Shown here piece by piece: positions 18,583-61,292 of a stretch of DNA of 64,000 bases. Made by a program: the position numbers and the translations under genes. The number at the start of each line of letters is the position of its first letter. The first letter of the stretch is position 1. The DNA is from Candidatus Bathyarchaeota archaeon (GTDB lineage: Archaea > Thermoproteota > Bathyarchaeia > 40CM-2-53-6). Where the stretch lies: contig CAWHWX010000016.1 in NCBI GenBank assembly GCA_963833125.1, positions 1 through 64,000 on the forward strand, in the 5' to 3' direction. The notes under the pieces were generated by a model. That model was given only the letters and a program-made list of their open reading frames with translations, was not told the DNA's origin and made no database searches.

Positions 18583-18592
18583 GCGCGGCTCC

Positions 18593-19306: not shown

Positions 19307-19311
19307 GGCTG

Positions 19312-33025: not shown

Positions 33026-33289
33026 TCACGCGGTCGGCTGTAATGTCTCTAATTCCCTCACTCGATCCAGCTCAGCCATGGCATCTGCGGGAGTGAGGCC
33101 GTCGGGGTCGGAGCCGCGCTGGTAGCACCGGCCTTCGGAATCCAGCCGCAGATACTGACGCGTGCGGATGTGCTTGTAGAACTCAACCCCTGCCTCGCGC
33201 CACATCCACATAAACTCGTGACACCCATCGGTCCCGACGAGTAGTTCAAGCGGTTTCCAGTTCGGATTTTCAAATGTCTTCTCAGCCAT
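33026..33289 (-). CDS. Hypothetical protein (87 aa)
   Basis: GAGGAG RBS; PNWKPLE..FMWM..YKHIRTRQYL; overlaps the primase stop. Confidence 0.65.
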   Translation of the reverse strand: MAEKTFENPNWKPLELLVGTDGCHEFMWMWREAGVEFYKHIRTRQYLRLDSEGRCYQRGSDPDGLTPADAMAELDRVRELETLQPTA

Positions 33290-34268: not shown

Positions 34269-34313
34269 CATTTCCTCCCGATAGTCTGGTGGTCGCCACT
34301 TCTCCATAGTGGC

Positions 34314-34348
34314 TGTGGTAAAACGAGAAATATTTTCTGTCAAACGGC
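34314..34348 (-). promoter_or_regulatory. Promoter with shared GCCGTTTGACAG motif upstream of the primase
   Basis: TTGACA, 17 nt, TACCAC on the minus strand. Confidence 0.5.
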
Positions 34349-39924: not shown

Positions 39925-40689
39925 TTACCTAAGCGCTTCTCGGAGGGTTGAATTTCGCTCGGTATGGGGGTTCAACACAGGCATGTCCAAAAGCTTTTCA
40001 TGCCACGACTGTGCGAGTCCGAAGAATAGGGGTAACTCAACACGCCAGAAGAAGCCGGCCACGAAACTCAACAGGTCGCGGTTGGGAACGAGGTAGAGTA
40101 TCCGTTCAACGGCGCGCTCGCTCTCAAGCCTCTTCGCGATCTCCGTGTAGTGTCTCCGGCTTTTCGGCGTGCGCTCGTACTCCAGGGCAAAGCGAGCCGA
40201 TCGGCCATCGAGTGCCACCGTCACCAGGGCATCGTAGTCCTTGGCGAACCCGAAGGGCGTGAGCTCGTTCCGGGAGCGGATCTCTGTTTCGCCGACCCAG
40301 AGAATCTCCATGCCTGCTCGCAGAAGCTGGAGGCGGAGGTCATTGAGCTCGACGGCGTGCATCACCTTGAGCTCGCGGTCGCGCGCGCCGCGCGGGGATG
40401 GAAGTGGCACGAAGCACTCCCCTGAGCCTTGGAGGAAGAGACTTCCACTCGGGGAGATCGTGTAGATGGACTCCGCGCGTAGGGCTGCGGTCTCGAGTTT
40501 AACCACCACGCCGTGATTCACGAGGCGCCGGAGCCTCCAGTCGAACACCCTGCGGTCACGCTCGTATCCGCCGCGCCTCATGAACTCGAACAGTTGTGAG
40601 TGCGTGACGAACTGTGAGCGGACGACCTGCTGGAGAAGAGGAAAGTCATGTGCCTGGCCGAGAGCGATCGCTCCCTTTGAGTAGCGCAT
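39925..40689 (-). CDS. Replication-relaxation (MOBC-like PD-(D/E)xK) relaxase
   Basis: N-terminal wHTH; D-x16-EYERTPK-x4-Y; near VirD4. Confidence 0.8.
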   Translation of the reverse strand: MRYSKGAIALGQAHDFPLLQQVVRSQFVTHSQLFEFMRRGGYERDRRVFDWRLRRLVNHGVVVKLETAALRAESIYTISPSGSLFLQGSGECFVPLPSPRGARDRELKVMHAVELNDLRLQLLRAGMEILWVGETEIRSRNELTPFGFAKDYDALVTVALDGRSARFALEYERTPKSRRHYTEIAKRLESERAVERILYLVPNRDLLSFVAGFFWRVELPLFFGLAQSWHEKLLDMPVLNPHTERNSTLREALR

Positions 40690-40693
40690 CCGC

Positions 40694-41236
40694 CTATGCC
40701 TCACAGTTGACCGCGAGTTCGAGCCGAGCCCGGCACGGCTCTCCGGCCACGGGCTCAAGGCTGTACGTCCCCACCGAGGTTCGGACCCTGCCATGTCCTG
40801 CCATGAGCATCATGGCCTCTTGATCGTCTCGCCACCCGCTCAAGGCGATGACCCAAACGTCGGGCGTGCTCCAGTCCGGCTCGCCAACCTGAAGGCGACC
40901 CACGTCGCGTGACCTCAGCACCACGAGGTAGCGATCGGGCTCAGCCCCGAAGGGAAGCAAGGTCTTGAAGAGGATCTTGTTCTGGCCCTGCCATACGCAG
41001 GGCTCCCCACATTCGAATACACGGCCGATCATCCTCTGTGGGGAGTTGGGATCGAACCCACCCATGCCATTGAACCGCACATGGCCGAGAATGCGAGGCC
41101 GGGTGCGCAGGGCGCCGTTGACCATCACGCCAGTCGTGTTGTAGTAGGCGGTGCGCGCGAACCGCCTCGGATCACGAGGGTCGTTCCTCACCCGCCGCCT
41201 CCACACACTCCCAAACGCCAGAACGCTCACGACCAT
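40694..41236 (-). CDS. Hypothetical transfer-region protein (180 aa)
   Basis: Tightly packed in the operon; GGAGG RBS. Confidence 0.7.
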   Translation of the reverse strand: MVVSVLAFGSVWRRRVRNDPRDPRRFARTAYYNTTGVMVNGALRTRPRILGHVRFNGMGGFDPNSPQRMIGRVFECGEPCVWQGQNKILFKTLLPFGAEPDRYLVVLRSRDVGRLQVGEPDWSTPDVWVIALSGWRDDQEAMMLMAGHGRVRTSVGTYSLEPVAGEPCRARLELAVNCEA

Positions 41237-41239
41237 GGC

Positions 41240-42052
41240 TCAGACTCCTCCCTTCAGGCGCTTGTTCTTCTCCCGCTCCGCGTGGAGTTGTTGTTGGAGG
41301 CTATTGATGTGCCGGACCAGCTCGGTCGGGGAAGTGGGCTGGACATCGGGAGGGGCGGAACCCTGTCCGTTCCCGCCTAATCGGCCGCTCAGTGCATCGA
41401 TGCGAAGGGAGAGGTCGGTGACCAACGCCGCTTTCTGAGCGAGCTCATCCTCGAGCCTTTTCTTATCGGCTCCTAGCGCGCTGATCTGGCCCTTGGCCTC
41501 GTCGAGGTCCATGCGGAGGCTCGAAGCTTCGGAATTCCCTCCCAGCGCCGAGGACTCGCCGGCACCCGAAGCCTCGATAGCCCGGTTGCAAAGCTCGATG
41601 TGCTCGTTGTATTGGCGGATCGCTTCTCGCGCCACCTGCCGGGAGGAAGCGTCGTGCGCCCGGACCTGGTCCATCTGCTCGCCCATGATCCGCTTCTCCC
41701 GCTTCCGGTCATATCGGGACTTTACGTAGGCCGCGAAAGAGAGGAGAGCTGCGAGCGAGACCCAAAGGCTGTACCAGAAGAAAGGACTCTCGACGGACGC
41801 ATTGACGAAGGCTTCACGCCGGGTCCGGTACCAGGAACCTAAGTCCACGTCGCGTGGGTTGAGTTCGTGGAACATGAACTCGTACCAGGTCTGGCCGCGC
41901 TCATAGAGAGGACGAGGTGACGGAGAAGCTCGGCGCAAAGACGCCCGTGCCGCGTTTGGATCACCTGCACGCGGGGGCTTGTGCTGCCCAAGAGCCGGCG
42001 CACTGACGACGCAGACAAAAAGGATAATTCGGAGCGCTCGGGTCATGGCCAC
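41240..42052 (-). CDS. Membrane-anchored coiled-coil protein (270 aa)
   Basis: Signal peptide, one TM segment, coiled coil; overlaps the VirD4 stop. Confidence 0.7.
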   Translation of the reverse strand: MAMTRALRIILFVCVVSAPALGQHKPPRAGDPNAARASLRRASPSPRPLYERGQTWYEFMFHELNPRDVDLGSWYRTRREAFVNASVESPFFWYSLWVSLAALLSFAAYVKSRYDRKREKRIMGEQMDQVRAHDASSRQVAREAIRQYNEHIELCNRAIEASGAGESSALGGNSEASSLRMDLDEAKGQISALGADKKRLEDELAQKAALVTDLSLRIDALSGRLGGNGQGSAPPDVQPTSPTELVRHINSLQQQLHAEREKNKRLKGGV

Positions 42053-43857
42053 CTTCCTCCCAATCGCCTTCCATGCTTTCTTACCAGCTCGTTATTTTTG
42101 AAGCGGAGGTTGGCGCCGACCGACTGAGCGCGAGAGTGCCGGAGCTGAGGGTAGAGTTCCGGTCTGAACCCTGGAATGCGGATGTCGCTCGGCGCCCGCA
42201 CATGAAGCAGGGTGTGCAAGGTGCCTTGGCTCTCGTCCGTCATGAGCATTTCGACCTGAGCCTTGGGGAGGTTCTTGATGTGGAAGTCGGCGGCCCGGGT
42301 CTCGAGTTGCTCGGTCTCGGTTACCTTCCCCGTTGGCTCGTAGTGTTCGTGGCCGAACATCCGCCAACCCTCGAGTGCAACACTGCGCCGGGGCACCCGG
42401 TGCAGCGCCGAGGCCTGGAGAAAGTAGCGGGCTGTGTCCTCGTTCTGAGTCTTGAAAAGAATCGTGGTGTTGGGAGCGGAGGTCACATCCTCCTGGAAGC
42501 CGCGCCCAACCTTCAGCAACTGCGGGATGCTCTGTAGGGAGAAGAGAAAGGCGGTGTTGGTTCCCCGGGCCGTGTTCAGGATGTGGGCGAAGTTCTGGTA
42601 GCCGAAGGGCGAGAATTCGTCGAGGACGACGCTGAAGATCGGATCGCCGGCTCCCGAGTCATCGTGGCCAGGCAGGTTTTCGGAGGGCATCGCTCTCTCG
42701 TATCTCTTGCCAACGACGAGCTGGAGGTTTTGGAGGAGCATCTTGCCCAGTGCCCGGACCGGCTCCGTGTTCTTGTTCACGTTCAGGCTGACGAACAGAA
42801 TCAAGTCCTGGTCAATCACCTCGTCGATCGACAACAGGTCTTCATACGGACCGGTGATGACCGACAGCTCGTCGTCCAGGAAAGTCATGCACTCGTTCAG
42901 GAGGCCTTGGATCTTCGGGACTCGCTCCCGGTCGTCGAGGGACTTGTAAAGATTCTTGACCGACATCTCGAAGTTGAGCCGGCGCTGGGTTGTGACGGAG
43001 GAATCGCGGGCGATGGCAGCCCGTGACTTGTCAACCTGCTCTTTCAGCACCTCTTCGTCCAGGGCCATCACCATCACGTCGTAGAAGTTGAATTTCGCCC
43101 CGGTGTATACCAGCACCCGCACAATATCGGACAGGTAGTTCAACTGGTGCTTGGCGAAGAACTCGTCGTGAAGGTTGAACGAGCCAAATACCATGTTGAC
43201 CACAGCCGAGTAGTCGTCGTGAGAACAGTGAAAGGGATTGTAGAGGACCGAGATGTCGGGCCGGGCGGGGCAAAGCAGGCGGAGCTGATGGAGTCTGCCG
43301 GCGCGGTGGAAGTACGGCAGCAAGTCGTAGAAGAACTTCATGTCTCCTTTGCCGTCGAAGATGACCATGGGGATGCGGCGCGGACCTCCTGGAGTCTGAA
43401 TGACCCGAGCAAGGTCCTGGCTGATGATGTTCGAGAGCAAAGTAGTCTTGCCCATACCGGTCTTGCCCAGGATGATCCCTTGCATCACACGAATGCGATC
43501 GGGCCAGAGAAAGGGACTGCCATGGATGTCGTAACCGAGGACCACCGAGTTGTCGGCCCAGGCTTTCCGACAATGTTCGTTGTCGATGTCTGGTGTGATC
43601 ACAAGCGGGGGGTGCGGCCACTGTTTCTCCCGTCTCGATCTCGCCGCCGCGGGGAACCAAATCGCGAAGAAGACTCCAAGGGCCAGAAGCACCCCGTATC
43701 CGTCGATTTCTATCATCTGCCGGCGGGAGAAGTGGAAAGCGTGGACGCCGACGTAGGAGACGCCGAGTATTAAGACCATGAGTGCAAACACGGCCTGAAC
43801 TTCGGGGCTGAATTCAAGTGGTGAGCGCTGGCGGGGAACTTCCCAGGCGGGTCTCAT
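42043..43857 (-). CDS. virD4: Type IV coupling protein, VirD4/TraD-like
   Basis: Two N-terminal TM segments, GKTGMGKT, FDGKGD, YNPF, VVLDEF, ARG..QS..QL. Confidence 0.88.
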   Translation of the reverse strand: MRPAWEVPRQRSPLEFSPEVQAVFALMVLILGVSYVGVHAFHFSRRQMIEIDGYGVLLALGVFFAIWFPAAARSRREKQWPHPPLVITPDIDNEHCRKAWADNSVVLGYDIHGSPFLWPDRIRVMQGIILGKTGMGKTTLLSNIISQDLARVIQTPGGPRRIPMVIFDGKGDMKFFYDLLPYFHRAGRLHQLRLLCPARPDISVLYNPFHCSHDDYSAVVNMVFGSFNLHDEFFAKHQLNYLSDIVRVLVYTGAKFNFYDVMVMALDEEVLKEQVDKSRAAIARDSSVTTQRRLNFEMSVKNLYKSLDDRERVPKIQGLLNECMTFLDDELSVITGPYEDLLSIDEVIDQDLILFVSLNVNKNTEPVRALGKMLLQNLQLVVGKRYERAMPSENLPGHDDSGAGDPIFSVVLDEFSPFGYQNFAHILNTARGTNTAFLFSLQSIPQLLKVGRGFQEDVTSAPNTTILFKTQNEDTARYFLQASALHRVPRRSVALEGWRMFGHEHYEPTGKVTETEQLETRAADFHIKNLPKAQVEMLMTDESQGTLHTLLHVRAPSDIRIPGFRPELYPQLRHSRAQSVGANLRFKNNELVRKHGRRLGGRWP

Positions 43858-44194
43858 GACAGTTGCAGGGCTCCTAAGCCGGCAAGAACAAGCCCCAACG
43901 CAACGAGAGACAATGACAGGTAGTGTTCGCTCCAAGCGGGCGTTCGGATTGTGGAGAAAGCCGCTCCAATGCATCCGACAGGATCGGCAGCGAGTGAGGC
44001 AGACCATCCCTCAGCAACGAAATCACCGGCCAGATGAGGAGGGCAATACACAGAAGAAAGTGAAAGATGGACCAGGGAGTGATGGAGACTGGTGTCACCG
44101 GTCTGTCGTCTACCGTTGCAAATTGGAAGACATCCTCCGGCTTGGTGACTCTCGCGTCTATTTGGTGGGGCAGCGTTGTCGGTAGTCCGGCCAT
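43854..44194 (-). CDS. Small membrane protein (frameshift ~43930)
   Basis: Two hydrophobic helices split across ORFs 43874-44497 and 43854-44051; ATGA overlap with VirD4. Confidence 0.5.
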
Positions 44195-44477: not shown

Positions 44478-45335
44478 TTAGAGCACAAGTGTGGCACTCA
44501 CTTCGCCGCGGTAGTCGTTCGCCAGCTCAAAACGGAGCACCTGCGGTGCGGACGAAGAGCGAGTGAGCCTGACCCCGACTACGCCGATGGTCGCCTCACC
44601 CGGACCCAGCTTGGTTTTCGGCAGCTTCTGGGCAGCCACATCCAAGGAGGTTCGAGCTTGGATTTTCAGCCGGCGCGCCTCCGCCTGGCTCAACTGCGAA
44701 TTCTGACGGGACAGCAGTGTGCGTGATGAACGCACGTCACTCAGCAGGAAGATCTTCGGTGAGCTGGGAGTGTAAACGTGAGTTGTGTCGTTTCGAATCT
44801 CGTATCGGATGAAAATCATGTCCTTGTCCTGGAAGAGATCATCCAGACGAACGGCCACGCGATGGTTGGACGATTGGTCTTGCTCGGCTCGCACCATTTG
44901 GTCTTCGACCATCGAATCCATGTGCGAAGGGCCAGCCGGAAGACTTGGTGAGACGCTTGCCGTCAGCTTGGTGGGATTCGTTGCGAGTGCCGGCTTCGGA
45001 TGGTCAATGGCAAAGTCCATTCCTTCGACTGGTCCGGCCGGGCTCAATTCATAACTGAACCGGCTTGAAGCTGTCCAAATGAAAAGGTTGGTCGATACGT
45101 TAGGCGCCGTAGGTTCTACGAAAACCTTATTGTCTCGCCATTCAATCTTGAAGGCAGGGCTTCCAGCGGCGACCGACACAACGGGCTCGCCCACCTCGAT
45201 GACGGTGAGGTGATCGAGGGCCGTCTGGACATGAATGATCCGATCACGGTTGGGTGACTCCGTCTCAACCTTCTGTCCCCAGGACGGGACCGTCAGCAAC
45301 AAAACCGCTAATCCAATAAGAAAACGTCGCATCAT
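44478..45335 (-). CDS. VirB9/TrbG-like T4SS protein (285 aa)
   Basis: Signal peptide, LDHLTVIEVGEPV, NKVFVEP, TNLFIWT; AAGGAGA RBS. Confidence 0.72.
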   Translation of the reverse strand: MMRRFLIGLAVLLLTVPSWGQKVETESPNRDRIIHVQTALDHLTVIEVGEPVVSVAAGSPAFKIEWRDNKVFVEPTAPNVSTNLFIWTASSRFSYELSPAGPVEGMDFAIDHPKPALATNPTKLTASVSPSLPAGPSHMDSMVEDQMVRAEQDQSSNHRVAVRLDDLFQDKDMIFIRYEIRNDTTHVYTPSSPKIFLLSDVRSSRTLLSRQNSQLSQAEARRLKIQARTSLDVAAQKLPKTKLGPGEATIGVVGVRLTRSSSAPQVLRFELANDYRGEVSATLVL

Positions 45336-45415
45336 AATTGTTCTCCTTCGTCTCGCCAATTCTTGAATTACTGGCCCCAGGAGGTCTAAAGGCAGACCTC
45401 CTGGGGGTTGTGGTT

Positions 45416-48183
45416 TCAGTGGACCTTGCGAACCGGAACGGCTGGGCGCTGGGCAGTGCCGGGCATGACCACCATGCCGTTTCGGATTTCGCTTCGGCCG
45501 GGAATGACCTTGAACGGACGTACCTTCTCGACCAGGACTGGCCGTCCGTGGTTGTAGTCCATGAAAAGGTCGCCATCCTCCGTGACATGACAGTAGAGGA
45601 TTCGCCTTTCCTGGATGTCGCCATCGAGACCCGCGAACCGGCTGACCAGGAAGACTTCGCCGTCCTGACCGATTTCGACTTCGCCATCGGCCAAGTCGGG
45701 AACCCGGACCATGATGGGCCGGCCTCCCGTGCGTTCCACAATCCCGTCCACCAATTCCTGGGGAAAGGCGTAAAACACAGTCGAGCCGATTCCGTGGCCT
45801 TGGCACACCTTGCTGTGCAAGGCCTGGAGCCAGCCACGCCGGTTGTCGGTTTTGCGCTCAGCCCACTTCCGCACAAGACAGATGGCGGTCTTCATCTCGT
45901 GGCGAGATTTCTCACGCTCGAAGAAACGCAGAGCCGCCCTGGCCTGCTTAAGCCGGAAGAGGGCCTCTTTCCGGGCGCGAGCGTTGTCCTTGACACGCTC
46001 GAATCCGGCTTCAGCTTCCTTCGCAGCCTGTTCGTAGGCCGTTTGTTTCTTCCGTGTGCGGCCGATCATGCGGGCATAGATTCGGTTGAGCTTGGTGACT
46101 TCCTCGAACATCTTCTCGTTGAACTCGCTCCCGGCGATGAGTCCACCGAAGGATGAAAGAGGAAGCGTTTCCTCGTTGGAAAGGAACGAGTGAATCTCCT
46201 TTCTCACCGAGTTGTAGAGTTGTCCGACGACATCGCTGGGCGCGACGCCATCGAAGTGAAGGGGCAGCTCCTCGATGCGCCTAGCCAACTTGCACTTCAG
46301 CCACGGCGCCGCTGAGCCGACTTCCTTGCGAATTGCTGCGATGCGTTCCCGATCCGGCTCGGTTCCGTGCTTGAGCTGGTCGAGTGCCGCCTGAAGCTCG
46401 ACCGCCAACTCCTCAGCAAGCTCCGGCCTCCCGGCAGCCTGGGCAATCGTCTTCAGGTCTGTGATCGCACCGATCGAGTTTCCCTTGGCAGACATGGCCA
46501 CCTGAGGAAGGTTCCACCACGGCGAGCGCTTCTTCGAACGTTTCTTCTTCTGGTTCGAGAAACGCTCCTCGTACCTGAACCGGTCATCGATCCAGCGAGG
46601 AAACTTCTCCGACTCGACCACGCAGATATAGTCGAAGTCGAAGTCCCCGCCGTTTCGCTTGGCGGTTTCAGAATGCATGGTGAAGGTCCCGCGCAAGAGA
46701 AGCTGCGCGTCGATGATCCGATCAAGTGCCTCTTTCTCCGCCATGGAGCAACCTGACTTGTCCAGGCGTTTCATGAGGAGATCAAGGGTTTCGGGCACCG
46801 CAAGGCGCGTGATGGGCAAAAGGTCTTCCTTGGTGCGAATCGGATACCGAACCGAAAGCATCCGGCTCGAAGCCAGGCTGACCAAGCCCCGGTCGGGCGG
46901 AATCCAGTCTGACCCGGAGTATATTTCGCCATTGTGTTCGACGAGAAAGCCATCGTCCGCGAGAGCGAACGCCGGTAAGCGCAATCCGCCAGGCGGTCGA
47001 GACCTTGTAGGCCCATCGAGTGAGCATGCGGTCCACCTGCGAGTGGATCCACGGGTGCTTGAGCATGAAACCCGTAGGATCGGCTTTGAGCACGGCTTCG
47101 ATGATAGTGTGCTCGATGCCGGTGTACTCGGAATCGAACGACTGGTCGCTGTCTTCGTCAATGACAGCTTGGGCTTCGGAGGTCCCGAGCAGCTCGAGAA
47201 GCGCTTCAAAGTTTCGTCCCTCGAATGCTGCCTTGACCTTCTCGATCTGATCGAGCGCGTATGGTTTGATTTCCAGCTCGATGGAGTCTGTCGGAGCGTG
47301 CTCGACCAGGCTGTAGCTGGCCCGGAATTCCAGGTTCCGCGAGACGTCACGGATGCCAAGAACTACCGGACCACGGAAGGTGCGGGCAGAGCCAGTGAGC
47401 CATTTGATGAGCGTTGGCTTACCCTTGTATTCAGGTTTGACCGATGACGCCGGCAAGACTATGTCGGCATCGAGGATTTCGGCTACCGCGTTCCGTCATC
47501 ACCTTGAACGATCCCTTCGCTTGGGTCCGTTCGAAGGCGAGCCGGAACTGGTAGAAGGCGCCGGGCGAGATAACGGAATGGCGGACGTTTCTTTCTGCCG
47601 CTGAGTTGATTTCTGCTACACCCAGGTTGGGATGGATTTTCGCGAGCCGCTGGACTTCCCGCTTGAGCAAACCGGTCCGGTGGCCAGCTTGCAACTCACG
47701 GAAGAGCGCCTCGGAGATCCAGCCTCTTGAATCGTTGGTCCCTAGCTCGTGATCGTCAACCACCAGAACCCGGCACTCAGGCTTCGCGATGCGTACGATG
47801 CAGTCTGAAACCAAAATGCCAAAGTAGGTCATGGCGGCTTCGGGCCAGTTTCCAAAGCGCGAAGCAATCTCCCGCTCGTGCTTCGGATCAACGGCGTAAA
47901 ACTTCCCGTTCTTTGCTGACCCGCTGGCCCCGATTAACGCGAACTTCTGTTTCTCCCACTCCAGCCGAACCAGCGCCTGCTCGACCGTAGCGCGCTCGAA
48001 AGGCGAGAGCTCCTCCTGAGGGACGTCCACCGTGGCCACAGCAATGCCAGGGTAGAGTCCTTCAAGAATCGTGTTCCTGAGTTCGTGTTCCCGATCCAAC
48101 GGATTCAACTTCTTTTGAACCTCACCGTTTCGATTGATTTCGAGGGCAAGCACCGGCGCCGCCCCGTTTATCCCGTAGTTCAT
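45416..48183 (-). CDS. Single-subunit two-barrel (YonO / cellular RdRP-like) RNA polymerase, ~920 aa (two +1 frameshifts)
   Basis: Collinear motifs NDSRGWIS, YQFR..QAKGSF, DIVLPASSVK, LKHPWI, GGLRLP..ADD, VRYP, GGDFDFD (46631-46645), IGAITD. Frameshifts at ~47493 and ~46991. Confidence 0.78.
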
Positions 48184-48204
48184 TGGTCTCCTCCTGTTTT
48201 GGAT

Positions 48205-48430
48205 TTAATCGGGCACAAAAAAGCAAGGAGGCCGTCGCCGGTCTCTTCGCCGTTTAGTGCCGAAAGGTGATTGGTCTTTCGGCTCTTCGGGCGAAGAGCC
48301 GTCTTTCGTGTCTATCTGCCTCTCTCTCGGATAGAAAGAAAGGTTTCTCGGCCCTGCGTCAGAAACGCAGAGTCGAAACTCTTCCGCGAAAATGGCTCAC
48401 GGTTAGCCTTTGTTCAAATGAAACCGGTAT
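48205..48430 (-). ncRNA. Candidate structured leader / ncRNA upstream of the polymerase gene
   Basis: Several stems, some mutually exclusive (CTCTTCGCC/GGCGAAGAG, GCCGAAAG/CTTTCGGC, GGCTCTTC/GAAGAGCC, TCTATC/GATAGA, CTGCGT/ACGCAG), then a T6 tract and AGGAGG RBS. Confidence 0.45.
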
Positions 48431-48433
48431 GAA

Positions 48434-48742
48434 TTAAGGATTCCTTTTCACTACCTCCTTTTTGAAAGTGGGCTGTTTACCACTGCAGTCGACAAGGGCG
48501 CGGTATTCGATGACGGCGTAGTAGCTCACGCCGGCTTTGAAAGCCTCCGCCATCGCCTCTGCCTCGGATGCAAATTCCCGCTCGAACTCGGGCGTGCGGG
48601 AATTCGTTCCCGGCCGCGCGAGGAAGAACCTCCCTTGGGGCGTCGTAGCCTGCGCCGCAGCAGCTTCCTTAGCCATCTGTGGACCCCGACTCGAAGCTTG
48701 CAGTCCTTTTCCCTCGACAACTTCTGAAGCGCTTCCTGCCAT
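48434..48742 (-). CDS. Hypothetical protein (102 aa)
   Basis: AAGGAGGA RBS; lies between VirB8 and the structured leader. Confidence 0.65.
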   Translation of the reverse strand: MAGSASEVVEGKGLQASSRGPQMAKEAAAAQATTPQGRFFLARPGTNSRTPEFEREFASEAEAMAEAFKAGVSYYAVIEYRALVDCSGKQPTFKKEVVKRNP

Positions 48743-48770
48743 GATTCCTCCTTCTTTCAAGCTTCGGTTT

Positions 48771-49493
48771 TTACTGTTGTCCCTGTCCGGGTGACCGAGT
48801 CTCAAGGTCGCTGTGCTGGATGAGACCCGTATCCCGATCACCGACCATCTGTTGTTCCTTGTATTCCGCCACCAGCAACCCGCTTGGGTTGTCGTCGGAC
48901 CTTCGGTCTTCAACCAGTCGGACTGTGTAACGACCTACTATTCGGTCCGTGGCTTCCGTTCCTTTGCGGACTTGATGGACTTCCTTCACACCGAACGCAA
49001 GATAAGTCCAGGGTGTTGCCTTCAGATGTTCAATCGACTTGATCTCGAAGTCGGAAATGATGCGGTCCTCGGCGATTTTTCCCACGGTGTCTGAATCGCG
49101 GAGTTGATTCATGGTGTAGGTCCGCAGATTCACGGTCATCATGTTGAGGGCTTCCGAAAGGTTGCGATCGACCGAATCCGGCGTATAGCTGAGGTACCGC
49201 TCAAGAAAGTGTTTTACGACCGCCCGTCCTTCGAGGTCGGTTGGCGCCGCTTCTTTTGCCGCCTCGGCCGAGAGCGAGAATAGTCTCTGCGCTCCAAGTC
49301 GAGCGGACCCGACAACGGTTGCATTTCCGTCTTTATCGACGCGGATGACGGTGGGCGGCTGCAGCCGGACATAGATGGCGAAGCCCAGTGAGGTCAAGGC
49401 TATCAGTCCGAAGATCGTCGCCAACAACATCGAGCGGTTGGCGTATGCGCGGAGCATCCCATCGTGCTCGTAGTACTTCGTGTAGGAGCTCAT
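48771..49493 (-). CDS. VirB8/TrbF-like protein
   Basis: N-terminal TM, PTVIRVD, FLERYLSY, DNPSGLLV NTF2-like ending. Confidence 0.8.
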   Translation of the reverse strand: MSSYTKYYEHDGMLRAYANRSMLLATIFGLIALTSLGFAIYVRLQPPTVIRVDKDGNATVVGSARLGAQRLFSLSAEAAKEAAPTDLEGRAVVKHFLERYLSYTPDSVDRNLSEALNMMTVNLRTYTMNQLRDSDTVGKIAEDRIISDFEIKSIEHLKATPWTYLAFGVKEVHQVRKGTEATDRIVGRYTVRLVEDRRSDDNPSGLLVAEYKEQQMVGDRDTGLIQHSDLETRSPGQGQQ

Positions 49494-49548
49494 GCTATCT
49501 CTGCCGGTTTCCGAACTAGATCTCTTGATGATCAAAGTTCTTGCTCCT

Positions 49549-50397
49549 CTACTTTGGAATCATCTTTGAAGGCAAAATGGCGGAACGAACGATGACCATG
49601 ACCGTGCTTCCCACGTCGCCCTTGATGATTCGGTCGGCCAGAAACGGAATCAGCGCGATACATATCGAGAAGAGGATGCTGGCCAGGGCCAGCAACAAGT
49701 CCTGGCTCGCGTTCTGGAAGAAACCCGCCACTCCACCCGAATTCAGAACGTTACTGACGCTGTTCACATTCAAGACCACGGCCAGCGCGGCGAAGATCGC
49801 GTAGAGTAATCCCCATGCCTGGAAGATCAGCATGTTCACGAGATAAGTCCGGGCGAGCTGCCCAACTCCGTTGGCGGGCAGCAGCGCCAGGACGAACGGC
49901 CCGGTAATATAAAGGATCGAACCGTAGAGTGAATAGAACAGCGCAAAGAGCGCGTAGGCGATGGGCATAACAATGAAGGCTACGATGATCAGCAGGGCGT
50001 CGAGAAGACCCGAGAGGCTCGCCCCCACCCCTCCTATAATCGACCACAGCGATTCGGTTCCATTCGTGCTCCAGTACTGCTGCAACTGGGTCATCCAATC
50101 GCTGAACATGTCTGTGCCGCCGACGAGGCTGATGATCGACTGCGCCACAGAATTGAACATTCCATTAACGTCGCGAAAAATCATGGGGTAGCTTGCGAAT
50201 ACCAAGCCCAGGATCAAATACTTGATCCCGGAAATTCCCAAAGCTCGCACGTCTCCTCCAGCGGCAAAGGCCTGATAAGCCCCGTAAAGAAAGCTCAAGA
50301 TCAGAATGGTGCTCGCGATGCCCACCACGCCCGTCGTGATGTTCGAGCTGTCGATTCCATCCAAAGCGTTCAGAAACATCTGTTGGAAATAAAACAT
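49549..50397 (-). CDS. VirB6/TrbL-like polytopic membrane protein
   Basis: Six or more TM segments, LYITGPFVLAL; position between VirB5 and VirB8. Confidence 0.75.
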   Translation of the reverse strand: MFYFQQMFLNALDGIDSSNITTGVVGIASTILILSFLYGAYQAFAAGGDVRALGISGIKYLILGLVFASYPMIFRDVNGMFNSVAQSIISLVGGTDMFSDWMTQLQQYWSTNGTESLWSIIGGVGASLSGLLDALLIIVAFIVMPIAYALFALFYSLYGSILYITGPFVLALLPANGVGQLARTYLVNMLIFQAWGLLYAIFAALAVVLNVNSVSNVLNSGGVAGFFQNASQDLLLALASILFSICIALIPFLADRIIKGDVGSTVMVIVRSAILPSKMIPK

Positions 50398-50400
50398 GGT

Positions 50401-51244
50401 TCACCTGGGCTGAAGCATCTGTTGGATCTTCTGCTGCAGACCGGACGCATTGGTGGCGCCCATTTTCAACGTCGGCTCCGGCGTTGGCCAGGTCGATGGC
50501 GCGGACTCGCATCAAGTCTGCCATCGCTGCCTGCGTGTAGGCGTTGGCTCTCACAAGCCAAGCATCCGCTTGCGCCTCGATGATTGGGGCGCTGCCGGGC
50601 GCCGCGGTCTGAATGCTCTGGTTGATTTGGTTTGCAGCCTGGATTTCGAGATCGGCCAAGTTGTCGATCTCGATGGCGCGTTTCATGGCATCCTGCGCTA
50701 CCGCGTCGCTCATGTCGATGACGTTTCGCACATTCTGTGGCGCCGAAGTCTGGTCGGGAACCGGCCCATAGACGGTCGTGTAGTTCGAGCTTGTGTTGCC
50801 GATTTGGCCGGAATCGGCTGAGAGAAGGATGCTCTCAAGCTGCTGGGTGCTCGGCAGTGTGGCGCTCGCAACCGGGATATGGATAACGGTTTGGATTTGA
50901 GAAAAGACGCCCTGGAGGTTTCCAACGAGTGTCTGGGCCTGAGTGATTAATTGCTGCGGCCAGACGACCGTCTGCTCGAAGTTTCCGATCGTTTGGTCCA
51001 CTGACAGGATGGAATTGAGGCCGCCACCGACAACACTGGTTAGGGCGCTGGAGATCGAGGCAAGCCCCGCTTCGAGAATCAGACAGCATGGGTCGAGGAA
51101 GATGCCCTTCACCGGCCGCGGCATGAGCAGGATGAACACCACTGCCAGGGCCGTCGCTCTTAACATGTGCGACCGGACCCAGCCGGCGCCCAAGGATATT
51201 GAACGCCGCGACCACTTTCCGAACTTTTCGAGTCTGTCTTTCAT
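50401..51244 (-). CDS. VirB5/TrbJ-like protein, paralog 1 (frameshift ~50465)
   Basis: Signal peptide, Q/A-rich helices, VWP..LI, AAPGSAP; ends QMLQPR*. Confidence 0.6.
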
Positions 51245-51266
51245 GATGATATCTCCCTTCGAAGAA

Positions 51267-52139
51267 TTACCTGGGCTGAAGCATTTTCTGAATCGACCCA
51301 CTGAACGCGCTCACGTGCGCCGCTCCCCGTTTCCGCAGGGCATTCGAGTGTGCAAGGCGTGCCGCCTCTTGCCGCAGCTCGGCGGCAAGCATTTTCTGGG
51401 TTAAAGCCTGGCTCTGAATGCTCGCCGCGACGGCAGTCGCCGTAAGGAAAGGGGCAGAACCCGGCGCCGCCTGGCTTGATGTGTCTTCAATCTGGTCCGC
51501 GATGCCGAGCGTTGTCTGGCCGGCGTCGTCGGTCTCCTTGAGCGTCTTCAGATTGTCCTTGGCGAGGGCATCGTCCATGTCAGTCGTGGCCCGGTCTTCG
51601 GGACTTATGGCTGCCGAGCCTGGCAGCGGGCCGTAAACGTTGTCGTAATTCGTGCTCAAAGTCGTGAAGTCACCGACCTGCTGGTTCCGAATCACACTCT
51701 CGAGCGCCTGCGTCGCCGGCTGCAATGCGCTCGTCAGGTTGATGTTGAAGATGCCCTGCATCGGTACGCGGTATTGAGCGGTCATTTGAGTCACTTGACC
51801 CTGGGCTTGGTTGATAAGCTGGGTCGGCCAGGCCGTGGTCTGGTAAAAATCGCTAATGGCGGTGCGGACGCTGGTGATCCCACTGAGCCCCGAGTTGATG
51901 ACGCCGTTGATCGCATTGAGGACGGCCTCGATTGCCCCGATGATGCTGAAGGCAAATGCTCGCGATGGCTGGATCACCATCACCGCCGTCGTCGTCCCCA
52001 CAAGAGCCAGCGCGATGACCTGGCGTTTCGATTTGGCTCTCACAATGCACCATGAAAACAAGAGAAAAAAGATTGCTGTCATTTGCTGACCTCCGCACAA
52101 GATACTTATGAGCGTTTCTTCAATACATCGTTCAGTCAA
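51267..52139 (-). CDS. VirB5/TrbJ-like protein, paralog 2
   Basis: Shares AWP.QLI, VYGP, DMDDA, AAPGSAP and MLQPR* with paralog 1; start may be 52082. Confidence 0.6.
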   Translation of the reverse strand: MTERCIEETLISILCGGQQMTAIFFLLFSWCIVRAKSKRQVIALALVGTTTAVMVIQPSRAFAFSIIGAIEAVLNAINGVINSGLSGITSVRTAISDFYQTTAWPTQLINQAQGQVTQMTAQYRVPMQGIFNINLTSALQPATQALESVIRNQQVGDFTTLSTNYDNVYGPLPGSAAISPEDRATTDMDDALAKDNLKTLKETDDAGQTTLGIADQIEDTSSQAAPGSAPFLTATAVAASIQSQALTQKMLAAELRQEAARLAHSNALRKRGAAHVSAFSGSIQKMLQPR

Positions 52140-54790
52140 CCGTCACTGCCTCGCGGATCTCACCTACCGACTCCTCAGGCAGCGGCGGCACATCCGCCAG
52201 TCCCTGCGGGAACTTCTTTGCCAACTCCTGGTAGCACTCAAGGAGCGGGCGGCCTTCGTTTCGGCCCAACAACCACTTGCGATACCGCCTTTCTCGGGGA
52301 AATGTCGTCGAGATCCAGTAATCGAGAGCGGTTGGTACGAGCCGAATTGTCTGCGTCGTTTCCGCTTTTTCTCCCAGCACCATCAGCGCCTGCGCATACT
52401 GCCCCTTTCGCGGCGCGCTGAATTCCTTCACTTCGTTGACTGCGGCAGGATTCGAGTGAAAGGTGCTTGACCAGCGCAGTCGTGTCCCCAGGCTGTTGCC
52501 CGATGATTTTCGTGGTCGCGTTCTTGAGAATTCCAGGGCCGTGCTCGCGAGGCTTGCCTTCGGTCCCGACGAAATCTTCCGGTGTCTGGCTGATGCCCCA
52601 CACGCTTCCGTAACGCTTGCGCGCCGTGCGAAACAGTTGTACGACCTCCGGGGCCAGGCTCGGGGAATCAAGCAGCGCCCAGCATTCGTCGAGCACCGTG
52701 ATCGAAGGCTGGCCGGTCTTCCCCGAGGCGCGCTCGGCCACGGCATTTGCAATCACCATGCTCATCGCAGTCTCAAGCAAGGGGTCCGAACTCAAGCCTT
52801 CGACGTTGAAGAAGACCCAGCCGGCATCGAGGCGCATGGTTGTGGGCCGATCGAAGAGGTTCGCGTATACTCCCTTTTCACCCGTCCACAACCGGAGCTT
52901 GATCGAAGCGAGCTTCGCTTCATCGATCGTGCGCTCGATCCGCTCTTCGTCCCGCCAGTTCGCAAGCTCTTCTTTGAGGTCGTTGAACGTCGGAATGGGA
53001 TTCGAGAACCGGGCGCGGCACCGCTTGTAGGTACGCGCGATGGCGTCGCTCAGAAGGTTATCGAGGAGGGTGTCGTCCGACCGGCGATTTTGCCCAATCA
53101 TGTGAAGGGTCAGGTTTTTGAGAAAGGCGATTTTGTCCTTGGTAGGCTCTGAAACGCCCACCGGCAGGTCCCAGGGATTCAACGTTTCTGTCCCTTCAAG
53201 ATCCACAGCAATCGATCGTCCGCCCATCAGTTCGACCAGAGGCTCGTACGAGTCGCCTCTTTCGAGAATCGAAATGAAGGGATTGGCCCTGGCCAGCATC
53301 AACAGAAACATCTGGGCCATGAACGTCTTCCCGGCGCCGCTCTTGGCCATAATCAGCATGTTGGCGTCTCCGAGCGAAGGGTCGAAAGGCGAGAAAGGAA
53401 TCAACTGTCGCTGCGGGGTCTCGAAGAGCATCACGGGTGATTGCGGCGTGCCGCGCCAGGGAACTTCGACGGGCATAAGATCGGCGGCATGTAGCGTGAG
53501 TTGGGGCAGTTCACGCTTATTCTCACCGCCCATGGCTGGGAGGCTCGCGAAATACAACCGCTTCTGGGCCAACATTTCCGGGACCCCGCGCGCGCCGTTC
53601 ATCCGCCCGAGTGCGTGGAGAACGCGCTGGCGCCGATCGGCAAGCGTCCGCGCTGCCTCCTCGCGCTCGAAATCATTCCAGATCGGCTTTGAGGTTCGGA
53701 CGCCGATAATCATGCTAGCTTCACAGACCTTGAGCGAGCTCGAGATCACTTGTTTCAGGACGTCGATCAACTGCTCTTCGGCAACCTGGGCGTCAACGTT
53801 CATCCGGAAGCCGCCGTGCATGTCGCGCTGCGCCGCCATCATCTTCCGCAGGCGCGACTTGAACTGCTTCTGGACCTTGGCTTGGTCGGGCAGATTAACT
53901 TCTACGTTCGCGACCAGTGGGAAAGACAAGCTCAATAGCTCGCGCAACATCCCAGGAAACGTGGCGTCCGGAAGGTCCTTGACGCTCACGAACGAGTACA
54001 ACAAACCGCCGATCTTCAAGTAGTCGTCGGCTTCGTTCTCGAAGTTGACGTTGGCTGCCTGAGAACGAGCGCTCTCATAGTCGAGCATCAGCTCGGGCGG
54101 TCTGAAGGGAAGAGCGTCTTCGCGCAGTGGGTCGAGCGCCCGCTTGATTTCAAGGAACAACTCCTGATGCGTCATCCTGCGAACACCCATCCCGGTCGAA
54201 TGCAGCGTGGTCTCAAGGCCCGACATGAGGCTGGTGAACTCGGCCCGGAGATCCTCATGCTCCCTCCGAGTCCGCTCGATGCACTTGGTTGCCGATGGGC
54301 TCCAACCGCCTCGCCGGCTCGATTTCATCTTCCGCTTCCACTCGAAGTCGGGCGACTGGTGGTGGATTCGCGGGTTCCAGATGAAGTAGGCATGAAGCAG
54401 GTGGCGGAGATAGCGGCCGGCGGCATCGTACGCTCGCCAGGCCGTGACACGCTCTTGATCGATCGTCTGCAGGATAGAGTTGGGGTTTCGCTGCTCACGG
54501 TTGTAGCGGCCAAGCAAGCCGCCCACGCCTTCCGCGATTTCGAATCGAATCTGCATCCGCATCGACCGCTCCGGAAGCGATCGCAGCAAGGCTTCGAGCG
54601 CCTGCTTGTTGCGGTTGCGTTCGTCGTCGCTCGCGTAGAGCGATGCGAGGCCGCTCAACTCGTAGCCCGCGACGAGGGATCCATCAACCTGGATGGCAAC
54701 GTCGTCCAGCAGGTCGCGGATTCTCAGTTGCTCGCACAGCGAAGCGGCGGTAAGAGAGCGCTCGTAATCTTCCAAAGTAATGGGCATCAC
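52132..54790 (-). CDS. virB4: VirB4-family ATPase (frameshift ~52455)
   Basis: AKSGAGKT, LNPWD, VLDECW, RTARK..G..ISQ. Confidence 0.9.
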
Positions 54791-57102: not shown

Positions 57103-58637
57103 TCAACCTACTGTTGCTGCTGGTTGTCGCTCGAAGCAGGTTTTTCCGTGGGTTCTTCGTTGAGAGAGCTGGCTCAACTCCTGCCTCAACTGCAATAGTT
57201 GTCTAAGCTCTTCGAAGCTGGGCGCGTCTTGTCCATCGCCCATTGCGCGCGAAGCGTCATTTCCATGGCCGGAGGATCGAGCTTTCCCGGCGGAATCGGT
57301 GGTCTTTTGAAGAACGACGTAAAATCGAGTATTGCCGGGAACCGTCACCACAATGTCTTGATTGAACGCAACCTGATTTAATTCGTTCTGTCCGGCAATT
57401 CCTACGTTGTCAGCCATTCGCTCTCTTAACAGCACGCTACCCGAGATCGGGCCGTTGATGTTATTTGCCCCTACCAAATAAGCCGCCGCGGTGCCCAACC
57501 CGGTCAGCGTCTGCACGAGAAATCGTGTGCCTCTTTTCTTGCCTGCAACGAGACCTTTGAGCGGCTCGAAGTCCAGACCCATCGACGTACCGTCAATCTT
57601 TTCCGTGGTTCCGTCCGGTAACTCAATCGTGTCGAAATGCAGCGAGACGAACCCGGAGGAGTTGGCTTGCAGCAGCCTTCCCAGAACCTTTGAGCCCGCC
57701 GGAATCACAATCTCGCCATCGCGTTCGTAGTTGTACTCAATCGCCGCCACAACTGGGGCCGAAACCGCCGTGCTGGCCGCCGACTCGAGTCGTGCAACCA
57801 AACAGTACCCGGCGGCAGAAGTGAATCGAGCAAAGTGGCTTCGGCGAGTGATTTGTCGGCGCGGAAACTCTCGCCATTTGCATGTGAAACGGCGGAAGCC
57901 AGACTGGAGCTTGCTTCAGTGTTTCTCACGAAAACGAGCGACGGCTTCTTGAGGTCATTCTCAGAAGCGAGTGTGATTGGTAAACCATGCGAGGCTGCCG
58001 GGAGGCTCTGGTTTCCGCCGAATCCGGCCTTCGCGTACTCCTTCTGCAAGTCCGGGTCGGAAAAGTCGATTTGGCCGAGCTCGTAGTTTTGGCCCAAGCG
58101 ATTCTTTGTCTTCGGATCGGCATGCGCGACTGTTGCGGGTGGAATCAAAGTGCTGGTGGTCGTGTTTGGCTTCGCAACTGCACTTTGAACGCCCGCGTGC
58201 GAAGTTCGGTTGATGTCATCTGGGGTTACCTGATCGCCTGTCGAGTGATTCTCTTCACGGGTGTCAGCACTCAGTAACGGCGTCGTCGAACCTGCTTCCC
58301 GCTGTTCTTGTCCCGGTGTGACCCTCCGGCCGAGGTCAGGCTTCCCCTTGCTCGAAGCATCTCGTCGCTTTGGTCTCTGGGGTGAGGAGAATAAAGCCAG
58401 GAAAACCAGCAGGCCAAGGACAGCCGCGGCCACCAGAATGAAGAACGACTTTGACTTGTCCTTGCCAAGCTCCGTGCGGGTTGTTGAGGATGGGCGCTTG
58501 GCAGCTTGAAAGGGCAGCTTGAGCGCCTTGAGCATTCGTTCGAGGGGAGTCTGCGGAGTTTCCGGCTCTTCGTCCTCGAGCAGGTGCAACTGCTCACTCG
58601 GAGTTGCGGCCTTACCTTCCTGTGTTCGATCGATCAT
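57103..58637 (-). CDS. VirB10/TrbI-like protein (frameshift ~57803)
   Basis: TM segment, P/S/T-rich linker, LLPPGT..ARL, PVVA, IPAGSKVLG, F..IELPDG, VTVPGNTRFYV. Confidence 0.82.
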
Positions 58638-59673
58638 GATTTTCCTCCTCAGAGACGTTGATCCCAAAGCCGATGGGAGCGAGAGCCGGCCGGTTAATCG
58701 CGCCGGCTTCCGCAACCTGCAAAAACAACGTTTCACTGGATTGCTTGTAGGGTGGGCGCTCGAAAAGCACCACGCCGTCAGCTCGTTCTCCCGGAGCAAG
58801 GCGCCGCTTGCTCAGCCGGTAGTCCATCACCGGCAATTGCTCGGCAGTCGTCCACTTTGAATGCTTAATGAATTTCCCTTGCTTCGTCTTGCCTCCCAAC
58901 TGGACCTGCGGCGGCATCATCAGGATGTCCCGATCCTGCGGGTTGACGACTGAAAACAACACGATCACTTCCTGCCCGCCGTCAATGACTTGACCGACCC
59001 CGGCGCGAATTCTCTCAGCTCCCGACGATTCGCTCTTCGGAACGCTCGCCATATAGTTCCGGCAGCGTGGCAGACTCTTGGAAGCGAAGAAGTTCGTCGA
59101 GGGTCTTTCGCCGAACTGACACGGGGGTCGCTGGTGTCGCCGGGGAAACAGTGAGAGACACGTGGCTTGGCGAAGCTGACGGCGAATCTGGTGGAGAATT
59201 ACGGTCAGCCCCGGCCGGAACTTCGGACGGCGACAGTGGAACCGTTTGTGAGACCGCAAGCGTCGAACCTGCCGGCTCGATGACAAAACTTTTTTCCGGC
59301 CGATAATTGACCAGGAAATCTACACTTGTGCCCGGTTGCTCCCCCGGGCTTCGCACGAGGACGCTCAATTGATGCCCCTTGGTCGTCGAAATCAGCAGAT
59401 TAGTCTGGGCGGCCTTGGTCGTAAGGACTTTCACGAACACCAGTTGCGGCTCGCGGTCGGAGTGCTCCACCTGGAAAAGCGCTGGGTCTCCAACAACCAC
59501 CGAGCTTACCGGCTCGGGAACCCTGATGGCCGTAACAAAGTGCGCCGCTACCTCGGCCACGGTCACCTGATCAGTGAAGCCGGAAAGGGTCGCAATCCGA
59601 GGCTGGAGCTGAGTCGTTTGACCATGGGCACAGGCAATACAGGCGACGAGCGCCGCAGCACAAAATATTCTGG

Positions 59674-61119: not shown

Positions 61120-61292
61120 CTAACTTGGCATTTTTTCTTCCGCATCATGCTGAAATGCGGAAATCGGGCTACGGAAGGCGGCGGCAGTCGGGATGAGAAG
61201 CATCATTTGTTGTGAAGCAATGACTGGAATAGACTGGCAAAGCAGAGGCTTACAGAGGAACGCAGGAGTCGCGCCGCTTCTGGAACACTTTT

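Follow-up and report, generated by a model that had tools for sequence, protein, structure and literature searches.

A candidate single-chain two-barrel RNA polymerase encoded at a fixed position in a VirB/MPF-T-like, conjugation-type secretion gene cluster

Introduction

Eight residues are invariant in all two-barrel RNA polymerases (RNAPs), namely an Asp and two Lys in the beta-like part and an Arg, a Pro and an Asp triad in the beta'-like part; PMC2919709, from which this set is taken, gives D837 of Rpb2 and D709 of QDE-1 as the fourth catalytic Asp, together with K979/K987 of Rpb2 and R446/P448 of Rpb1. Two-barrel enzymes resembling RNA-dependent RNA polymerase (RdRP) form a known class, with members in phages, plasmids and "transposons", and PMC7824862 mentions "transposon relatives" of RdRPs. 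According to 10.1101/2020.03.07.982082, QDE-1-type enzymes transcribe single-stranded DNA (ssDNA) better than RNA, and gp66 of a crAss-like phage transcribes ssDNA and enters the cell with the DNA. PDB entries 8H2M and 8H2N represent the virion RNAP of phage P23-45 (PMC10770324), and in these two phage cases the RNAP is reported to enter the target cell with the DNA and make the first transcripts. Here a gene for a putative polymerase of this class is described at 45416-48183 on the minus strand of a 64,000-nucleotide stretch of DNA (the window; positions 1 to 64,000 of contig CAWHWX010000016.1, assembly GCA_963833125.1, deposited as Candidatus Bathyarchaeota archaeon), where it lies among the genes of a conjugation-type type IV secretion system (T4SS).

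In conjugation, the first RNA on the transferred strand is made by conjugative primases (Sog of IncI and TraC of IncP plasmids) or by host RNAP at single-strand promoters (Frpo of F). The primases are encoded in transfer regions, have Toprim or AEP folds, and some of them are transported to the recipient. To our knowledge, conjugation has been dissected almost solely in Proteobacteria and Firmicutes.

Results

The gene and its protein family

Six-frame translation of the minus strand between 45416 and 48183 gave three open stretches in three frames. The stretch at 47434-48183 comprised 250 aa from an ATG at 48183 that was preceded by an AGGAGG-like site; the others lay at 46785-47495 (frame +1) and at 45419-47362 (frame +2), the latter with its stop codon at 45416-45418. 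The two nearest intact homologues, P0003 (922 aa) and P0006 (921 aa), were used as alignment references. The three pieces of the gene (A, B and C in Table 1) covered residues 1-230, 231-397 and 398-921 of these proteins without loss, at identities to P0003 of 79, 85 and 83%, respectively; intact P0006 and P0003 were 81% identical. An earlier note on this DNA had joined the three open reading frame (ORF) fragments into one protein, and the pieces did tile the 921- to 922-aa homologues end to end; the interval is one gene for a single-chain protein of about 921 aa. All eight motifs quoted in that note were found in the order given there (Table 1). Piece C also contained a helical region and a C-terminal beta-rich domain. 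The translation was inspected for a signal peptide or membrane feature by eye only, and none was noticed.

The gene was preceded by a 250-nt intergenic region with a hairpin at 48280-48301. Near the gene a single sigma-70-like site was found in 5.2 kb, which equals the shuffled expectation, and promoter and terminator counts were no higher.

A word-indexed search with the largest piece yielded 1095 proteins at E<=1e-3 among 8000 candidates scored, far beyond chance. Nearly all full-length homologues were 860-933 aa long; all were annotated as "hypothetical" and lacked a precomputed Pfam domain, and the few from named organisms came from Bryobacteraceae/Terriglobia metagenome bins. One homologue, P0039, is encoded on a 5.4-Mb contig with the look of a finished genome. 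Exhaustive HMMER searching with P0003 as the query gave 643 representative clusters at E<=1e-3, 417 at <=1e-10 and 125 at <=1e-30.

Forty-two full-length family members, with identities down to 28%, were aligned (alignment A2). Residues Q212, R214, K223, K227, P244, K249, R445, P447, D513, D515 and D517 were invariant in 42/42, and D151 was present in each of the 41 sequences with a residue at that position. The three Asp that the earlier note had taken for the active site (D513, D515 and D517) were thereby conserved throughout the alignment. K223, K227 and K249 stood in the order expected for the Lys pair of the beta-like barrel; no alignment with a solved structure reached them. In class and order, the invariant residues fit the set given in PMC2919709. 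At the level of its alignment, the family thus appears to have retained the full active-site residue set of two-barrel RNA polymerases (D, QxR..K, K, RxP and DxDxD). Among metagenome loci the triad was GDFDFD in 47 and GDYDFD in 22, counts that are biased, the triad being one of the two search patterns.

Relationship to known two-barrel polymerases

The link to characterized enzymes was made through a sister family. Among 72,556 plasmids searched by tblastn, five from Pseudanabaena encoded a 787-aa protein (L014) that was 22% identical to P0003 over 85% of its length (best E 2e-18). This protein has a DFDGD triad and scored 22.4 bits against PF05183, the cellular RdRP family (cut-off 23.8). 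It was aligned with 20 relatives (A3); A4 denotes the merger of A2 and A3, and A5 the YonO family. In hhalign, A2 and A3 matched with a probability of 100% (E 5.1e-64) over 648 columns, DYDFD falling on DFDGD.

When the A3 profile was run against all PDB sequences, eight sequences were obtained at E<=10. The top two were Arabidopsis RDR2 (7roz and 7eu0, E 0.0026), aligned in three co-linear stretches that included DG.GKIS...FQxR and R/K-x-P (xxNP)...DxDGD. They were followed by a plant RdRP (7w82, 0.017), the P23-45 virion RNAP (8h2n/8h2m, 0.03-0.08), the unrelated YacP (0.13), and QDE-1 with a related fungal RdRP (0.84-0.85). In the fourth-Asp region, "gDChGkIS" of A3 was aligned on "sDGiGKIS" of RDR2, and through A3 the R-x-P motif of the family was aligned with "TKNP" of RDR2 and "LRSP" of YonO. 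A3 also matched the YonO family (probability 87%, E 4e-6, 322 columns), and its member P0292 matched phrog_4291, "RNA-dependent RNA polymerase", at E 2.6e-10. PF05183 was the commonest Pfam match among the 42 family members, being found in 5/42 (best E 8.8e-4); the three matches inspected fell on profile positions 429-560 of 582, the catalytic part.

A number of results weigh against assignment to this clade. All five PF05183 matches lay below the 23.8-bit gathering cut-off. The three window pieces had no match in Pfam, and P0003 had none in Pfam, NCBIfam, PHROGs or PDB sequences (phmmer); a PF05183 search of the source assembly (G000) missed the locus and returned a single unrelated match (E 0.17) on contig C17. 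In hmmsearch, the A2 profile gave only coiled-coil noise among PDB sequences. A2 was not significantly matched to YonO, either as a single sequence or as the YonO-family profile (A5, E 0.26, hhalign), and the merged A4 gave weak matches (E 0.02-0.4) and was less sensitive than A3 alone. Because every PF05183 match was sub-threshold, the link to known polymerases rests on the transitive chain and on the motifs. The canonical Gly of DxDGD was replaced by Phe or Tyr in 34/42 members, the residue between the second and third triad Asp being Phe in 32, Tyr in 2 and Gly in 8. Searches of the ESM Atlas with P0003 and P0120 gave feature look-alikes only; these were unnamed acidobacterial clusters, in one of which 15% of members carried PF05183.

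By these profile scores the family is a formal member of neither PF05183 nor the YonO family. That the motifs are convergent or relict, and the protein a structural or scaffolding part of the secretion machine, would agree with the want of an above-threshold match to any curated family and with the replaced triad Gly. Such a reading is very improbable: ten catalytic-type residues were invariant over 42 sequences down to 28% identity, the co-linear profile matches were exclusively to two-barrel polymerases, the canonical DxDGD was retained in the eight members with Gly, no signal peptide or membrane feature had been noticed by eye, and crAss-like RNAPs function with DFDID (10.1101/2020.03.07.982082). 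The protein very probably belongs, as an active enzyme, to the single-subunit RdRP/YonO/crAss clade of two-barrel polymerases. The type of polymerase named in the earlier note was supported by residue set and motif order and by transitive profile links to RdRPs, phage two-barrel RNAPs and YonO; formal PF05183 or YonO membership was not obtained.

The secretion gene cluster and its conservation

The gene was flanked by co-oriented genes for a VirB4 ATPase, a coupling protein, VirB8, VirB9 and VirB10, all in one cluster (a VirB/VirD4, MPF-T-like set; Table 1). VirB4, VirD4 and VirB8 scored above the Pfam cut-off, and CagX/VirB9 and TrbI/VirB10 below it. The position given in the earlier note, between virB8 and virB9/virD4 and co-oriented with them, was confirmed by these Pfam profiles. 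The relaxase that it placed near virD4 was not: no relaxase family was matched by 50 window ORFs searched in Pfam or by five searched in NCBIfam, and the sole candidate was a weak MobC/replication-relaxation-like match (39925-40794).

Gene order was kept in 8/8 close loci from species-representative genomes. It was also kept in 7/7 loci of a 401-genome sample of Acidobacteriota, the phylum to which the genome of locus L002 belongs; the proteins there were 36-50% identical to that of the window, and one was truncated after piece B. The polymerase-like gene was present in 7/401 Acidobacteriota genomes, including the centre genome, which has two copies. Metagenome synteny was scored in the best 80 of 447 relatives, with loci of sufficient flank as denominators and without bias from the triad search pattern. 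VirB8 was found upstream in 45/47 loci with at least 1.5 kb of flank and VirB4 in 25/26 with at least 7 kb; downstream, VirB9 was found in 65/65 with at least 1 kb and VirD4 in 43/44 with at least 3 kb. Linkage of the homologues to virB8 and virD4, on which the earlier note had staked its proposal, was thus near-absolute.

Lying between virB8 and virB9-virD4 and in the same orientation, the polymerase-like gene is a fixed core member of a VirB/MPF-T-like, putatively conjugative T4SS cluster that occurs sporadically in Acidobacteriota. It has travelled with the secretion-system gene set over long divergence and, judged by its conserved residues, is apparently catalytic.

Table 1. Polymerase-like gene, its frame breaks and the genes of the surrounding cluster, in descending order of window coordinates.
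Feature	Position	Strand	Remarks
TrbI/VirB10-like	57103..58799	-	Two overlapping frames; PF03743 E 7.5e-6, 26.4 bits (below cut-off of 35)
Small genes	Between TrbI/VirB10-like gene and VirB4		Co-oriented
VirB4-type ATPase	52132..54790	-	PF19044 E 3e-15; assigned as neighbour at 52238-54790; frame-split
Two paralogous genes	51267-52139, 50165-51301	-	Between virB4 and virB6-like gene; match no family
VirB6-like membrane protein	49549-50397	-	
VirB8 homologue	48771..49535	-	Upstream neighbour; PF04335 E 4.9e-7, 30.2 bits (cut-off 23.2)
Small conserved ORF	48434..48913	-	Between virB8 and polymerase-like gene; no family match; tblastn matches in many relatives' loci
Piece A	47434..48183	-	Residues 1 to ~230; start ATG 48181-48183; N-terminal "GASGSAKNGKFY" block; NDSRGWIS (47713-47736, holds fourth catalytic Asp); YQFR..AKG of YQFR..AKGSFK (47503-47553)
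First break	47488..47491	-	One extra base relative to relatives; blastn, 8/8 spanning alignments
Piece B	46989..47495	-	Residues ~231-397, +1 frame; DIVLPASSVK (47436-47465, invariant Lys); HPWI (47046-47057)
Second break	46991..46991	-	One extra base, centre of G+C-rich palindrome; blastn 8/9, ninth at 46983
Piece C	45416..47017	-	Residues ~398-921 and stop, third frame; GGLRLP (46973-46990); VRYP (R-x-P, 46835-46852); NGGDFDFDY (Asp triad, 46628-46654); GNSIGAITD (IGAITD inside 46457-46483)
13-bp G+C-rich hairpin	45375..45406	.	Directly 3' of polymerase-like stop; coding strand without T-run
VirB9/CagX-like	44478..45335	-	PF03524 E 3.4e-7, 30.7 bits (below cut-off of 34.2); likely start ATG 45335, 80 nt past polymerase stop
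VirD4/TraG-type coupling protein	42043..44007	-	PF12696 28.7 bits, PF10412 21.5 bits
Coiled-coil protein, then gene of no named family	Between VirD4-type gene and MobC-like gene		Co-oriented
MobC/replication-relaxation-like	39925..40794	-	NF041423 E 8.7e-9, 35 bits (cut-off 200); last conserved gene of cluster, position conserved

The paralogous pair at 50165-52139 gave cross-matches of 31-38% identity in every relative's locus. Genome G401, that of L002, carried two whole copies of the cluster (C152:9168-11930 and C7:23433-26036); from the identity of each to the window protein the copies were judged to be about 50% identical to each other, as two diverged elements in one genome. In a long-contig bin (G402), the cluster of locus L006 lay at the very end of a 446-kb contig (C11) with several of its T4SS genes frame-changed, and fragments of the polymerase-like gene were found on four other contigs.

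The two frame breaks

The polymerase-like gene was compared by blastn with the loci of nine relatives (Table 1). The earlier note had put one extra base near 46991 and another near 47493; the former was found exactly there, and the latter was moved to 47491 (47488-47491). The remaining gaps relative to the relatives were multiples of three or compensated pairs. Logan contigs of four public runs were compared over 45300-48300; no RNA dataset was among the runs listed with matches. In three of them (X1, X2 and X6, from soil or peat and from two studies), contigs of relatives about 90-99% alike showed as their sole indels the omission of one base at each of 45336, 46991 and 47491. Position 45336, the third of these one-base differences, falls in the spacer between the ribosome-binding site and the virB9-like start codon, immediately upstream of the latter. 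The polymerase-like gene was uninterrupted in 68/69 fully covered metagenome loci, the remaining copy (L091) having an internal stop, and in seven genome loci (L002 to L005 and L007 to L009).

Other genes of the source assembly (39 contigs, 87.8% complete, 7% contamination) were broken as well. The archaeal rpoB on contig C14 lay in two frames that met at position 686/687 of the NF006335 profile (pieces 11-687 and 686-1042), and the last third, or C-terminal part, of the archaeal rpoA'' was in another frame than the preceding 1157-aa ORF (rpoB/rpoA'' region G000:C14:88128-95308). VirB4 of the window was frame-split near residue 779, both pieces being contiguous in one frame in L002. A KAP-family P-loop NTPase was likewise represented by two consecutive ORFs (window 61193-63289 and C16:63353-64855), the first ending with profile positions 1-73 and the second containing 130-250; another assembly indel is the probable cause of this split. 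The whole assembly was taken to be prone to indel errors because of the frame breaks in rpoB and rpoA'', and because these essential archaeal genes are broken too, the breaks in the polymerase-like gene are more readily laid to assembly than to mutation.

The breaks are probably indel errors of an error-prone assembly rather than signs of gene decay. The gene may alternatively be a real pseudogene, with genuine and very recent insertions in a decaying or immobilized element. Two breaks within 2.8 kb, a broken VirB4 nearby, the failure to recognize a relaxase in the window, the truncation of relative L056 after piece B and the internal stop of L091 all suit that explanation, and the four small contigs of run X3 that were identical to the window covered neither break site, so that recent mutation is possible. 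A pseudogene is nevertheless unlikely. Decay does not explain why rpoB and rpoA of this assembly are broken. The identity of the pieces to P0003 matches that of intact P0006 to P0003 and that of the neighboring T4SS genes to their L002 counterparts (76-85%), and no gap other than the two extra bases disturbs the frame. Programmed ribosomal frameshifting was considered for the two +1-type frame changes in one gene; with relatives that are single ORFs (68/69 metagenome copies and 7 genome loci) and sites that are neither shared nor conserved, it was ruled out, its probability being practically nil.

The host contig and the rest of the window

The window (G000:C16:1-64000) lay in a block of 0.56-0.61 GC that made up the first ~68-72 kb of C16, a contig of 520 kb with 0.50 GC in the remainder. 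The remaining 450 kb was of archaeal type (4-hydroxybutyrate-CoA ligase, V-type ATPase subunit I, LonB, archaeal-type SMC and KaiC), and rpoB, rpoA and L30e on contig C14 of the bin were archaeal; searches for rpoB and rpoC with bacterial models gave weak matches only, because the bin is archaeal. The GC-rich block carried bacterial (Acidobacteria-like) genes, with an ECF sigma factor just beyond the window end, and the close relatives of the cluster were all in bins labelled Acidobacteriota or Terriglobia. The polymerase-like gene was found in 0/400 other genomes of the archaeal phylum of the bin, a count that says nothing on Acidobacteria. No tRNA integration site was found in C16:1-80000. 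A chimeric contig with its junction near C16:68000-72000 is the ordinary explanation; alternatively, a bacterial-type conjugative element may have been inserted in an archaeal chromosome.

Tyrosine-recombinase genes lay side by side in two groups, at 556-1803, 1572-2798 and 2795-3808 and at 8839-9930, 9967-11580 and 11304-13451, some of them overlapping in different frames; tyrosine-recombinase triplets are typical of integrative elements. An SF1 helicase resembling RecD2 and the TraI helicase was encoded at 14390-16498 (AAA_30, HHH_RecD2 and a weak TraI_hel_assoc_N match), and no relaxase domain was detected on it. In the region 16823-20409, a ThiF/E1-like gene (16823-17620) and a prokaryotic E2 family D gene (18593-19330), with an adjoining 365-aa ORF, formed a ubiquitin-like conjugation module such as occurs in conflict systems. 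An 823-aa protein (21850-24321) had a central cytidine/deoxycytidylate deaminase domain (PF00383, with weaker AID/APOBEC-like and MafB19-like matches). The same GC-rich block contained a TOTE-type AEP primase domain (33282-34343) and a recombination-directionality-factor-like gene (35693-36337).

Discussion

Possible roles

The role proposed for the enzyme is that which Sog/TraC primases, or host RNAP at single-strand promoters, have for other plasmids. RNA would be made without a sigma factor on the single strand handled in conjugation, by an enzyme resembling QDE-1 and crAss gp66 in its good use of ssDNA; it would prime synthesis of the complementary strand, express early genes of the incoming element, or both; and the site of action of the enzyme would be the mating channel or, once it has been transferred, the recipient cell. 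The roles put forward in the earlier note (transcription of the tra or leading-region genes, priming of the transferred strand, and co-transfer to the recipient) would likewise be hypothetical. This model is preferred because the enzymes nearest by profile need no sigma factor, use ssDNA well and, in the two phage cases, enter a cell with DNA, and because conjugation delivers a single strand that must be primed or expressed in a cell possibly blind to the promoters of the element. By analogy with those enzymes, an ssDNA-templated RNA polymerase acting on the transferred strand, for priming and/or early transcription, is a tentative but plausible proposal. In a stronger version, an RdRP-clade two-barrel polymerase would be an integral part of the conjugation machine; it would pass through the type IV channel, or work there, and the initial RNA that it makes on the transferred strand would serve as primer and/or early messages. 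This version is doubtful.

Three observations speak against such a role in transfer. The last 25 residues carried a net charge of at least +3 in 20/42 members, compared with 33% of 135 control ORFs, so the tail is not distinctive as a transfer signal; the GC-rich block already encodes a protein with an AEP-type primase domain, as described above; and the sister family of the Pseudanabaena plasmids is not adjacent to T4SS genes.

A transcriptase of the donor side could be envisaged instead, that is, a promoter-specific DNA-dependent RNA polymerase (DdRP), independent of host sigma factors, that transcribes the T4SS/transfer operon or other genes of the element on double-stranded DNA. YonO is reported to be a processive DdRP for the late genes of its own element, SPbeta, and the polymerase-like gene lies within the operon it might drive, has a strong ribosome-binding site of its own and follows the intergenic region with the hairpin; the element also occurs in divergent hosts, where autonomy from host RNAP could help. 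The family is, however, no closer to YonO than to RdRPs, a polymerase encoded in mid-operon cannot begin the first transcription of that operon, and the sigma-70-like sites near the gene did not exceed the shuffled expectation, which leaves this alternative rather unlikely. A role in conflict was also weighed, with antisense or double-stranded RNA being made from incoming or resident nucleic acid for exclusion, defense or anti-defense, as by RNA-silencing RdRPs. Those RdRPs are indeed the characterized homologues nearest by profile, the block is rich in conflict-type genes (the E1/E2 pair, the deaminase-domain protein, the KAP NTPase and the AEP-TOTE domain), and the plasmid sister family stands among large helicase and methyltransferase genes. 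Defense genes are usually variable cargo; the gene considered here belongs to the fixed core, keeping its one place between structural T4SS genes across 36-95% identity, and the conserved cluster showed no Argonaute- or Dicer-like partner. Such a role is improbable, and conflict and non-enzymatic roles are harder to reconcile with the fixed position and with catalytic residues that do not vary.

Novelty and significance

A full-text literature search did not find an RdRP/YonO-like polymerase in a T4SS operon or with a role in conjugation; key surveys of the family and their supplements lay outside that search and may list it. The two-barrel RdRP-like class is known, and the conjugation operon is a new functional setting for it. 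A polymerase gene as fixed as virB8 or virB9 points to RNA synthesis coupled to DNA transfer, a step that is absent from, or delegated to the host in, the textbook systems. Should the step consist in priming the incoming strand or in transcribing it early, establishment in distant hosts without recognition by host RNAP would be explained. With its compact size (~900 aa) and presumably sigma-independent mode of action, the family offers a two-barrel enzyme for studies of the minimal RNAP core. It also brings a lineage from outside the phages into the debate over where the RNA-silencing RdRP came from; were the polymerase truly part of the conjugation machine, conjugative elements, besides phages, would be a possible reservoir for the source of the eukaryotic enzyme. 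Indel-rich long-contig assemblies mask such genes as "three ORFs".

Comparison with known systems

The sister family of the Pseudanabaena plasmids (A3; phrog_34895) is clearly homologous, has the same motifs and is likewise borne on a mobile element. It differs in its canonical DFDGD and in having phage relatives, and its neighbors are very large helicase and methyltransferase genes, a Rho-N domain protein and ParA, with no T4SS genes among them.

Eukaryotic RdRPs (QDE-1, RDR2; PF05183) resemble the T4SS-linked family in being single chains with the beta-like motifs first (D-G/C-x-G-x-IS, F/YQxR and a Lys) and the beta'-like motifs second (R/K-x-P and DxDxD), and in an N-terminal "FS/AS-G/S...F" block; they supplied the top PDB matches of A3 and the commonest Pfam match of family members. 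They serve in RNA silencing, whereas the family is found in a bacterial conjugation operon, has mostly D[YF]D[FY]D as its triad, scores below the Pfam cut-off and is ~100-500 residues shorter than the solved RdRPs matched by A3.

YonO of the SPbeta prophage of Bacillus, a single-chain DdRP, is a bacterial mobile-element protein, probably of the same clade and of similar length (~840-920 aa), and its match to A3 spans R-x-P, DxDGD and an N-x-IG motif. Unlike the T4SS-linked family it is phage-borne, and the direct comparison of the two was not significant; no phage relatives of the T4SS-linked family were found in 50,697 phage records (tblastn) or in an IMG/VR scan.

Conjugative primases and host RNAP are likened to the polymerase-like protein in proposed role only, their folds being unrelated (Toprim or AEP in the primases, multisubunit in host RNAP). 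No Toprim or AEP domain was found in the polymerase-like protein with Pfam and NCBIfam, and no homology to these systems was detected.

The virion RNAPs of phages phi14:2 (gp66) and P23-45 (gp96) are delivered by phage particles and are fused to, or embedded in, very large proteins, and in these respects they differ from the family protein. The P23-45 enzyme (8h2m/8h2n) was among the top PDB matches at the triad, the alignment being confined to the triad region. With gp66 there are the further likenesses of a non-Gly triad, DFDID, and of the use of ssDNA, proposed for the family protein (10.1101/2020.03.07.982082 for gp66). Both virion enzymes belong to the two-barrel RdRP-like clade and enter another cell with DNA and transcribe it; export of the family protein is only proposed, and if the polymerase does belong to the conjugation machine it would be the plasmid counterpart of these injected crAss-like and P23-45 virion RNAPs.

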